Made by a program: the position numbers and the translations under genes. Positions 36,076 through 37,446 of a DNA stretch of 64,000 nucleotides are shown in pieces. The stretch spans positions 72,895 to 136,894 of the forward strand of contig CAZTKG010000001.1 of NCBI GenBank assembly GCA_964613815.1. Direction: 5' to 3'. Position 1 is the stretch's first letter. Each line of letters begins with the position of its first letter. This DNA is from an uncultured Gammaproteobacteria bacterium (GTDB lineage: Bacteria > Patescibacteriota > Patescibacteriia > UBA9934). Under the pieces are notes generated by a model. It was given only the letters and a program-made list of their open reading frames with translations. It was not told the DNA's origin and did no database searches.

Positions 36076-36101
36076 AATGAAAAACACCACCGCGAACGGT
36101 G
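36076..36101 (-). terminator. Rho-independent terminator immediately after the tRNA-Asn 3' end
   Basis: On the minus strand: CACCG-TTCG-CGGTG followed by GUGUUUUUC. Confidence 0.65.
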
Positions 36102-36151
36102 ATGTTTTCTTGGCTCCGGGGGTGGGATTCGAACCCACGACCAATTGGTTA

Positions 36152-36675
36152 CACATTATCCTGATGTTTCCATCGGGGGTGGACTATATCATCATCCCTT
36201 TGGGATGCGAGGCGCTTCGAACTGATTTTTCAGCCCTACTCCTTGCGGATAGTCTCTGAACCTTCCCTTTCGGGCTTGGCTGCTGATTGCCCTGTCTTTC
36301 GATTTAGGTTTCCAGCAATTCACCTCGTTTTCACTCCAACGTTGCCGATGGAGGCTGCGTGATGCCAGCATGAATTTCTCTATGGCAGTTTGCACAAATT
36401 AGAACACATTTGTCGAGCTCTTTTTTCACCCTTTCCCGCGATCGAGTCAGTCCATCTTGAGATATTCCAAACTCTTTTTTTGATGGGTCAAGATGATGAA
36501 AGTCGAGTGCACTCCCGCATTTTTTATAGCTGCAGATCGTGCACTGGCGCCGAGATATTCGACAGCCATTTGTCTGACTTTTTTGCGCCTTTTTGAAACT
36601 GCTTTTTTGAGATACTCAGCTCTGTCGGCGTATTTTCTCTTGTCTGGCATGGTTTTCGTATACCTGACGTGTTTC
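36152..36675 (-). mobile_element. Group I intron (about 524 nt) carrying an HNH homing-endonuclease pseudogene
   Basis: Lies between the tRNA exons. Contains the P7-like GUUCAGAGACUA element near the 3' end, a 5' splice site after U and a 3' splice site after G, and an internal HNH ORF. Confidence 0.7.
36331..36650 (-). pseudogene. HNH homing endonuclease, frameshifted (1-nt deletion near 36547-36550)
   Basis: Frame A reads MPDKRKYADRAEYLKKAVSKRRKKVRQMAVEYLG. The +1 frame then reads QCTICSYKKCGSALDFHHLDPSKKEF...DKCVLICANCHREIHAGI, a complete HNH motif set. A single G deletion in ...CTCGGCG(G)CCAG... explains the break. Confidence 0.75.
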
Positions 36676-36748
36676 ACAGCCAACTGCTCTGCCACTGAGC
36701 TACCCCGGATTACTTACGTCTTGCGACGGAAATAAGATATCATGATGA

Positions 36749-37192
36749 ATGAAACTTATCAATAGTATGAGCAATGAACAGCCTGGCTTTGTCTTCAACA
36801 CAAACAAGTCGCCTGCCCTTGCATGGGCTCGGCTTGATCTTGTGATTGTTGATCGTGGGTCGAAATATAGTGTTACTGCTGGGCGGGTTGGGTCTGATGA
36901 AGACATACGCGCTTTTATGAAGTGCGTATATCAGGATCGTGATTATCAACAAGCGACGCATAACAGCTATGCGGCTCGGTTTCGTGATCGTGGGATGGTT
37001 ATTGATCGAAAGGCGGACGATGGCGAAGATGGAGCTGGGATGGTGATTTTGCGAGAGTTGCGACGGGTGGAGATGGTGGACGTAATTTGTGTGGTGACGC
37101 GGTGGTTTGGGGGGACGATGTTGTATGCGGATCGGTTTAAGCATTTGCGAGATGGGGCGCGGATGGGGATTGAGGCTTGTTTGAAGGTATGA
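36749..37192 (+). CDS. IMPACT/YigZ-family (UPF0029) protein
   Basis: IVDRGSKYSV...HNSYAARF...DDGEDGAGMVIL...VICVVTRWFGGTMLYADRF matches the YigZ N-domain pattern. Confidence 0.7.
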   Translation: MKLINSMSNEQPGFVFNTNKSPALAWARLDLVIVDRGSKYSVTAGRVGSDEDIRAFMKCVYQDRDYQQATHNSYAARFRDRGMVIDRKADDGEDGAGMVILRELRRVEMVDVICVVTRWFGGTMLYADRFKHLRDGARMGIEACLKV

Positions 37193-37446
37193 AGAAATGG
37201 AGTGTTTATATGTTAAGATGCGGTGATGGGAGTTTGTATACCGGGATAGCCATCGATGTTGAAAAGAGACTTAATGCTCACCGGTCAGGAAAAGGTGCGA
37301 AGTATACGCGTGGTCGATTGCCGCTTGAGGTTGTTTGGCGCGAAAACGATTTGTATGAGGGTGAAGCGAAGAGGCGTGAGATTGAGGTTAAGAAAATGTC
37401 GAGGCGCGATAAAGAGTTGCTAATAAAAAATGCCCTATTGGGCTAG
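37189..37446 (+). CDS. GIY-YIG nuclease-domain protein (YhbQ/UPF0213-like)
   Basis: VYMLRCGDGSLYTGIAIDVEKRLNAHRSGKGAKYTRGRLPLEVVW is the GIY-YIG core. Confidence 0.75.
   Translation: MKKWSVYMLRCGDGSLYTGIAIDVEKRLNAHRSGKGAKYTRGRLPLEVVWRENDLYEGEAKRREIEVKKMSRRDKELLIKNALLG

Follow-up and report, generated by a model that had tools for sequence, protein, structure and literature searches.

A group I intron with a frameshifted HNH gene splits a tRNA-Asn(GUU) gene of a Patescibacteria bacterium

The minus strand of a 64-kb stretch of contig CAZTKG010000001.1 (hereafter the window, which is the portion of the genome that was analysed) carries, from 36709 to 36111, a tRNA-Asn(GUU) gene split by a group I intron. 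We are highly confident that this is a tRNA-Asn gene of Patescibacteria with a predicted self-splicing intron of subgroup IA between anticodon positions 35 and 36 (35/36), and that the loop of the P1 helix of this intron (L1) contains the decayed gene of a putative HNH homing endonuclease. An earlier note on this DNA had described the element from the letters; its class was already published in 2025-2026, and splicing was shown in vitro (Nakagawa, Amikura, Omae, Suzuki 2026, mSystems, PMC13011429; bioRxiv 10.1101/2025.07.03.662931, July 2025). As judged from core, tRNA, guide and HNH identities, the window element is another member of that tRNA-Asn 35/36 class and not a new one. The parts of the gene are as follows.

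36676 to 36709, minus strand: 5' exon of 34 nt, tRNA positions 1-35, ending in CUGU (sequence, cloverleaf once joined, conservation in 77/77 loci)
36152 to 36675, minus strand: group I intron of 524 nt, subgroup IA type, with the terminal guanosine (omega-G) at 36152 (RF00028, covariation, identity to a self-splicing intron)
36111 to 36151, minus strand: 3' exon of 41 nt, positions 36-76, starting with UAA and ending in an encoded CCA (sequence, ARAGORN, 77/77 loci)
36353 to 36359, minus strand: internal guide C-GCAGCC, the 3' strand of P1, which pairs with exon GGCUGU (36681-36676) and intron G1 (36675) (complementarity, fixed position, covariation)
36331 to 36650, minus strand: probable HNH pseudogene in the P1 loop, from ATG 36650 to the native stop TGA at 36333-36331 (three-frame translation, tblastn, alignment, homologues)

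ARAGORN with default settings reported zero tRNAs in the whole window, and its intron mode detected the split gene as Thr(tgt) i(33,524). When the exons are joined, the program returns either Asn(GUU) with the 5' exon ending at 36676 or Thr(UGU) with the splice shifted by 2 nt. Joined, the exons fold as a cloverleaf of 75 nt, in which the acceptor stem has 7 bp, the D stem is GCUC/GAGC, the anticodon stem GUUGG/CCAAU with the loop CUGUUAA, the T arm GUGGG-UUCGAAU-CCCAC and the discriminator G73; the 34-nt 5' exon is without position 17 and hence ends at U35. Sequence and ARAGORN bear out what had been read from the letters, namely two exons placed 524 nt apart that join into a canonical 75-nt tRNA.

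Relatives of the open reading frame (ORF) in the intron, repaired as described below, were sought in one genome per GTDB species, and the best 80 of the 364 stretches obtained were used for the counts given here. The same architecture was found in 76/80 of these loci from other genomes and is therefore not due to chance. The ORF lies inside a tRNA-splitting insert of 496-712 nt in 72 loci, and 4 more are cut by contig ends and display one exon together with the ORF or the core; the ORF stands upstream of a tRNA-Asn bearing an ORF-less intron in 3 loci and upstream of an uninterrupted tRNA-Asn in 1.

The only Rfam match within the 64 kb was RF00028, the group I intron model, at 36425-36160 on the minus strand (95.1 bits where the gathering score is 50, E=3.2e-23, full model 1-253), which upholds the group I assignment made earlier. 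The signs on which that assignment had relied are all present: an exon U stands before the insert, the last base of the insert is G, and GGUUCAGAGACUA, the P7 sequence, is found within it. For helix scoring, pairs were defined on the window sequence and examined in 65 introns aligned from the guide to the 3' splice site, with the following results.

36336 to 36351, minus strand: P2 hairpin with a GCAA tetraloop (6 pairs, all with two-sided changes, 98.5% paired in the 65 introns)
36208 to 36327, minus strand: P3, 36327-36321 with 36214-36208 (92.6% paired cells)
36317-36260, minus strand: P4-P5-P6, enclosed by P3 (P4 99% and P6 94.9% paired)
36256-36250 and 36186-36181, minus strand: 5' and 3' strands of P7 (invariant, 100% paired)
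36249-36240, minus strand: P7.1, UCC-GCAA-GGA (100% paired in the 33-34 sequences having P7.1)
36236-36219, minus strand: P7.2 (72% paired, two-sided changes in 7/7 pairs)
36207-36193, minus strand: P8 (90.8% paired, many compensatory changes)
36177-36160, minus strand: P9 with a GAAA loop (88.2% paired, many compensatory changes)

Over the 54 pairs of the core, 89.7% of cells hold standard pairs, compared with 33-47% when the partners are slid by 1-3 columns. Two-sided changes occur in 40/54 pairs, and the covariation score of the core is 0.499 against 0.146 in shuffles, with 0/500 shuffles as high. Compensatory changes are abundant in P2, P3, P4, P6, P8 and P9, and P7 is invariant. The window has every invariant core position, so its ribozyme looks intact; P7.1 and P7.2, which lie between P7 and the 3' strand of P3 and are a hallmark of IA introns, place it in that subgroup. 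From these alignments, the catalytic core, P3-P9 with the P3/P7 pseudoknot, is judged to be intact, supported by covariation and of subgroup IA. The 5' part of the Rfam alignment (36425 to about 36384, some 40 positions) was considered as P1 and P2 and rejected; it falls within the ORF and is taken as a spurious fit of the model, and the real guide and P2 lie at 36359-36334.

The guide is situated 317 nt downstream of the exon strand with which it pairs and forms a U.G wobble at the 5' splice site. The ORF is enclosed by P1 and so lies in the P1 loop; the same loop measures 3-4 nt in ORF-less relatives. In nearly all introns with an ORF (60+) the guide sequence GCAGCY occurs 23 nt past the codons for Asn-Cys-His in the HNH motif, and in ORF-less introns it occurs within the first 40 nt; a search of the first 25 nt of the window intron for a guide gave no register with a U.G wobble. 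In a set of 72 distinct sequences compared with 500 shuffles, the wobble of U35 with the guide G is invariant (72/72). Intron base 1 and the base on the 5' side of the guide form the +1 pair, for which the 72 sequences have GC in 46, AU in 15, UA in 3 and CG in 1, with 20 two-sided changes, a level of covariation reached by 0/500 shuffles. P1 holds 4 invariant pairs besides this one; its exon side is effectively CUGU plus, usually, G31, and the covariation lies on the intron side.

The ORF in the P1 loop had been described as an HNH gene with EYLGG-CxxC...HH...CxxCH motifs broken by one missing nucleotide, and this is what alignment with 9 intact homologues reveals: a single-base gap in the second Gly codon of EYLGG, which corresponds to the loss of 1 nt between 36548 and 36547. 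The original frame stops early at 36449-36447, 33 codons past the deletion, and the frame after the lesion reads QCTICSY...FHH...CANCHREIH; tblastn gives two high-scoring segment pairs in different frames. The truncated product of 82 aa has no exact-protein match on record. The repaired ORF encodes 106 aa and is collinear with >2000 homologues, which are about 104-110 aa long and share 60-76% identity with it; names such as Uhrbacteria and Nomurabacteria are frequent among them, and many have a precomputed match to the Pfam HNH family PF01844. The product of the repaired ORF is treated here as an HNH family endonuclease. Among the in-intron copies of other genomes 70/72 are uninterrupted, and premature in-frame stops are found in the other two, L007 (codon 72, the Trp of TRSW) and L037 (codon 21), so that the window is not alone in having a decayed endonuclease gene within an intact ribozyme.

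A short promoter-like element precedes the homing endonuclease gene (HEG) in many relatives, and its counterpart in the window is degenerate, with the sequence AGGTATACG at 36657-36664.

36657 to 36662, minus strand: degenerate -10-like hexamer TATACG, preceded by AGG, 6 nt upstream of the HEG ATG (4/6 match, no TG)

A match of at least 5/6 to TATAAT ending 4-16 nt before the ATG was counted in 51/72 in-intron homologues (shuffled mean 10.3, max 18), and TGn stands before the hexamer in 29 of those 51. The TGnTATAMT-like element is also found upstream of free-standing HNH copies; being present before both kinds of copy, it belongs to the ORF cassette rather than to the ribozyme. This distribution suggests that the element is a putative promoter of the endonuclease itself, giving an mRNA with a very short leader that would be nearly leaderless. 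The other end of the ORF is under a dual-coding constraint, in that its last codons double as guide and P2: in the window (36334-36367) ITQPP is encoded by AUC ACG CAG CCU CCA, which is at once the guide and the 5' strand of P2; directly after P2 comes the stop codon. The same C-terminal stretch is mostly G[IV]TQ[LP]P in in-intron copies and has diverged in free-standing ones (e.g. FASLP, FAKIP).

From these elements the following course of events can be proposed. The precursor would be transcribed through the intron, and exon CUGU would pair with the guide GCAG(CC), the HNH ORF being looped out in L1. An external guanosine would attack after U35 at the U.G wobble, and the terminal G at 36152 would then direct ligation of the exons into a 75-nt tRNA-Asn with an encoded CCA. 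Splicing of the window copy is modelled on a validated homologue described below. The HNH enzyme would once have cut intron-less alleles of tRNA-Asn, and repair would have copied the intron into them; such a former homing activity is predicted from the position of the gene in the intron, its family and its relatives beside tRNA-Asn. In most relatives the HEG would have its own -10-like promoter just before the ATG, and in the window genome the 1-nt deletion and the degenerate promoter would have left it dead. The intron would thereby be immobile, yet its splicing would still be needed, and the 3' end of the ORF would remain constrained because guide and P2 are encoded there. Read in this manner, the window copy would represent a late stage of the homing cycle, with a dead endonuclease, a degenerate promoter and an intact ribozyme.

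Several observations count against the mechanism just outlined. The 3' exon (UAACC) gave no convincing P10 with the bases that precede the guide on its 5' side, and tRNA positions 30-31 display no covariation with the guide, 21 and 29 of the 72 sequences being unpaired there. The Pfam HNH model scored 21.3 bits on the repaired ORF, 0.1 below the cut-off of 21.4; in favour of the HNH identity claimed earlier stand the PHROG HNH families, which match the repaired ORF at E=5e-28, and the CxxC...HH...CxxCH residues, all of which are present. The frameshift lies in a locus that is 100% identical over 801 bases in two metagenome records of different sources, ENA ERZ23498905 and JGI 3300007512, one of which may be the source of the window itself; in that case a single further assembly would be what independently confirms the frameshift. 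The HNH gene could still be functional, the frameshift being either an assembly error or bypassed by programmed ribosomal frameshifting, and the catalytic residues CxxC, HH and CxxCH past the lesion are indeed intact, from which it follows that any inactivation was recent. We nevertheless find a functional gene unlikely: besides the identical sequence in the two records, the lesion site (GGCG^CCAG) does not have the form of a long homopolymer or of a slippery heptamer, the downstream frame has no start codon before the first CxxC, the -10-like element is degenerate too, and the independent nonsense mutations of L007 and L037 demonstrate that such genes do decay.

The interrupted gene might instead be an unspliced relic, with a second, intact tRNA-Asn elsewhere in the genome doing the work. 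The 64 kb covered here leave room for an uninterrupted copy outside the window, a further point on the opposing side, and a related genome (L076) does have an uninterrupted tRNA-Asn. Set against this, the ribozyme retains every invariant core base and every helix, the exons give a perfect cloverleaf, and signals of expression remain on both sides of the gene.

36734 to 36762, minus strand: promoter-like site TTGATA-17-TATCTT with TG before the -10 hexamer (consensus scan, 9/12 matches)
36080 to 36101, minus strand: terminator-like hairpin, a 7-pair stem followed by TTTTT, 10 nt past the CCA (scan)

The hairpin and T-run at 36101-36080 agree with the intrinsic terminator that had been noticed after the tRNA, and the promoter-like site is weak evidence, such sites in the region being no more numerous than in shuffles. 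In the complete genomes tested in the published work, the interrupted gene was the sole copy of tRNA-Asn (PMC13011429). A relic is thus very improbable, and we retain the interpretation of a functional, spliced tRNA-Asn gene.

The choice between Asn-GUU split at 35/36 and Thr-UGU split at 33/34 had been left open, and it is decided here in favour of the former. All 77 loci, window included, have a 5' exon ending in CUGU, a 3' exon starting with UAA, and U1, A72 and discriminator G73; the last three match bacterial tRNA-Asn, such as that of E. coli. The intron ends in G in 76/76 related introns when read in the Asn register and in 49/76 in the Thr register. In addition, the spliced product of a 77%-identical intron was sequenced after reverse transcription PCR (RT-PCR), and its junction lies at 35/36 (PMC13011429). 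The register of omega-G, the universal tRNA bases, the U.G wobble with the guide and the published junction together assign the gene to tRNA-Asn(GUU), with the intron predicted between U35 and U36. That it is a tRNA-Thr(UGU) gene with an intron at 33/34 is scarcely credible: ARAGORN in intron mode (-i) does call Thr for the window and about half of the related loci, switching between Asn i(35) and Thr i(33) with the same ambiguity as in the window, and the Thr register of the window likewise has an exon U before the intron and a terminal intron G, but this register would end 27/76 related introns in A or U, the partner of the guide G is U35 and not U33, the universal U1-A72 and G73 fit tRNA-Asn, and ARAGORN and tFind are documented as often labelling such genes Thr(UGU) 33/34 despite the 35/36 junction (PMC13011429).

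The relatives of the HNH gene are not confined to introns. In four loci of Patescibacteria-type metagenome-assembled genomes (MAGs), L052, L069, L078 and L076, a free-standing HNH gene lies about 35-90 nt upstream of tRNA-Asn. The tRNA-Asn genes of L052 (1881-2143), L069 (1876-2139) and L078 (1838-2153) bear ORF-less 35/36 introns of 192-244 nt, and that of L076 (1895-1965) is uninterrupted; L052 and L076 have a common downstream flank, which indicates that presence of the intron differs between close relatives. Contigs of MAGs often end within a few hundred bases of the intron (L016, L020, L023, L028, L034, L038-L041, L043, L048 and others), a hint that assemblies may break where a population is polymorphic for the intron or the HEG.

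Among viral contigs of IMG/VR, 312 HNH relatives (50-68% identity) were found, and in the best 80 of them (L084-L163) the gene is free-standing and usually lies within a tRNA array. The nearest tRNA is tRNA-Asn(GUU) in 43/71 tRNA-bearing loci, far above chance given that Asn accounts for 15.5% of the tRNAs there. In 43/80 loci an Asn gene is found no more than 150 nt from the HNH relative, and several loci have one on both sides. In the depositors' annotation the homologue has tRNA-Asn as its immediate neighbour in Klebsiella phage Muenster, Bacillus phage Bastille (on both sides), Synechococcus phage S-H38 and Vibrio phage VH1_2019 (records MT708547.1, JF966203.1, MW117965.1 and MN794232.1; L164-L166, L168). 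An association with tRNA-Asn for the whole HNH family was considered and rejected, as distant phage relatives adjoin tRNA-Met/Ile, Arg/Lys, Pro/Ala or no tRNA. No description of the association between this HNH lineage and tRNA-Asn was found in the literature searched. As a separate observation, 15/68 viral tRNAs with a GUU anticodon are 82-91 nt long with a long variable arm (e.g. L086 1165-1251, L092 1780-1870, L099 1201-1287, L105 1111-1197, L137 1811-1900), a type-II-like body as in Ser, Leu and Tyr tRNAs, and several of them adjoin the HNH gene.

We suggest tentatively, as a reading that falls a little short of probable, that one HNH lineage tracks tRNA-Asn in three settings and that the mobile intron of Patescibacteria, also known as the candidate phyla radiation (CPR), arose when a phage-type endonuclease invaded an ORF-less intron at its own target site. 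In phages with unrelated hosts (Bastille, Muenster, a KVP40-like Vibrio phage, a Synechococcus phage) the gene would be free-standing in tRNA arrays. In some CPR genomes it would likewise stand alone, upstream of a tRNA-Asn that has either a 35/36 intron without an ORF or no such intron, and in the third setting it would be inserted in the P1 loop of the 35/36 intron; all intermediate stages would still be extant, the decaying window copy included. The tRNA-Asn association in phages and the free-standing CPR copies fit invasion of a pre-existing intron by a tRNA-Asn-specific endonuclease. Precedents are collaborative homing in cyanophage psbA and intron-less homing by the T4 Seg enzymes. Were this reading true, HEG-bearing tRNA introns would be far more frequent in Patescibacteria than one would conclude from the survey of complete genomes, and the sharing with phages would offer a tractable natural series on how free-standing endonucleases and introns combine.

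The host is assigned to Patescibacteria (CPR) from a single marker gene, MetRS, whose named relatives at 61-71% identity are Uhrbacteria, Parcubacteria and 'Patescibacteria group'. The window has ordinary cellular genes, including MetRS, leucyl aminopeptidase, HtrA, an ABC ATPase and a ZIP transporter. Intron and HNH gene are also found in bins titled Limisphaerales, Gammaproteobacteria, Pseudomonadales, Omnitrophota and Elusimicrobia (L010, L016, L025, L040, L043-L046, L054, L055, L062, L065, L068, L081). Mislabelling or contamination of such bins could account for this; otherwise the element is present outside Patescibacteria, which if true would contradict the published confinement of HEG-bearing IA 35/36 introns to that phylum.

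A GIY-YIG ORF of 78-85 aa (PF01541 in L001 and L002) lies at 37210-37446 on the plus strand, about 500 nt upstream of the tRNA gene, and is adjoined by an Impact_N family gene at 36749-37192 (plus strand). The strand asymmetry of the window is strong and uniform to about 60 kb, with a plus-strand GC skew of about +0.1 to +0.34 and an AT skew of about -0.07 to -0.33. The sign of the GC skew flips at about 60-62 kb, which could reflect an origin or terminus of replication or a change in the orientation of genes.

The published class was defined in a survey of 95 complete Patescibacteria genomes, in which group I introns interrupt 15 tRNA-Asn(GUU) and 3 tRNA-Asp genes at 35/36, 25/28 introns at this site being of subgroup IA; two introns self-splice in vitro exactly at 35/36, with an omega-G-to-C mutant as control (PMC13011429). 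The validated pre-tRNA-Asn of GCA_016700035.1, whose intron is ORF-less, and the window element agree in 68/75 positions of the mature tRNA and in 153/198 aligned positions (77%) between guide and omega-G, and GCAGCC is the guide of both. The repaired HNH product is 59% identical to that encoded in an intron of GCA_016699425.1. Together these identities to the published introns place the window element in their class. It resembles them in host phylum, tRNA, site, IA core, guide, the presence of HNH in some members, the ARAGORN miscall and invisibility to default annotation. As is already noted in the literature, default tools miss such a gene or call it tRNA-Thr, so that a genome seems to be without tRNA-Asn and its completeness is misjudged. 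The window HEG differs in being frameshifted, the main text of that paper being without a frameshifted or pseudogenised HEG. There, HNH (PF01844) genes were found in 4 tRNA-Asn introns among the 333 tRNA introns of complete genomes, and HEG-bearing tRNA introns were judged to be of low prevalence, with the remark that drafts might reveal more (PMC13011429). The GTDB scan gave 364 relatives, and in 76 of the best 80 the gene lies in a tRNA-Asn intron, which suggests that the HEG-bearing form is common in draft Patescibacteria genomes, beyond the published survey. What this analysis appears to add to that work is thus the frequency of the HNH-bearing form in drafts and an endonuclease lineage common to phage tRNA arrays, where it lies beside tRNA-Asn.

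Among other known systems, the cyanobacterial tRNA-fMet(CAU) intron, with a PD-(D/E)XK enzyme, and the tRNA-Arg(CCU) introns, with LAGLIDADG enzymes, are likewise anticodon-loop group I introns with an HEG, but they differ from the window in tRNA, in site (33/34 and 36/37) and in endonuclease family; of all bacterial tRNA introns, 81% are IC and not IA (PMC13011429). The cyanobacterial and plastid tRNA-Leu(UAA) introns and the Azoarcus tRNA-Ile intron are also self-splicing and lie in the anticodon loop, but unlike the window intron they contain no ORF and occupy other loop positions. They belong to subgroup IC3. The Nostoc tRNA-Leu intron was the positive control of the published splicing assay (PMC13011429). 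With I-PfoP3I, encoded in a group IA2 intron of cyanophage Pf-WMP3 (PMC3428280), the window element has in common an HNH gene in an IA-type intron, a likeness drawn from description only. Phage HNH introns, unlike that of the window, interrupt protein-coding genes and have larger enzymes. I-HmuI and I-TevIII are further phage intron-encoded HNH enzymes. Finally, T4 SegB (PMC2330249) is a free-standing homing endonuclease in a phage tRNA cluster, like the phage relatives of the window HNH gene, which adjoin their presumed target gene; it is of the GIY-YIG family, whereas the window copy is HNH, intron-borne and bacterial.

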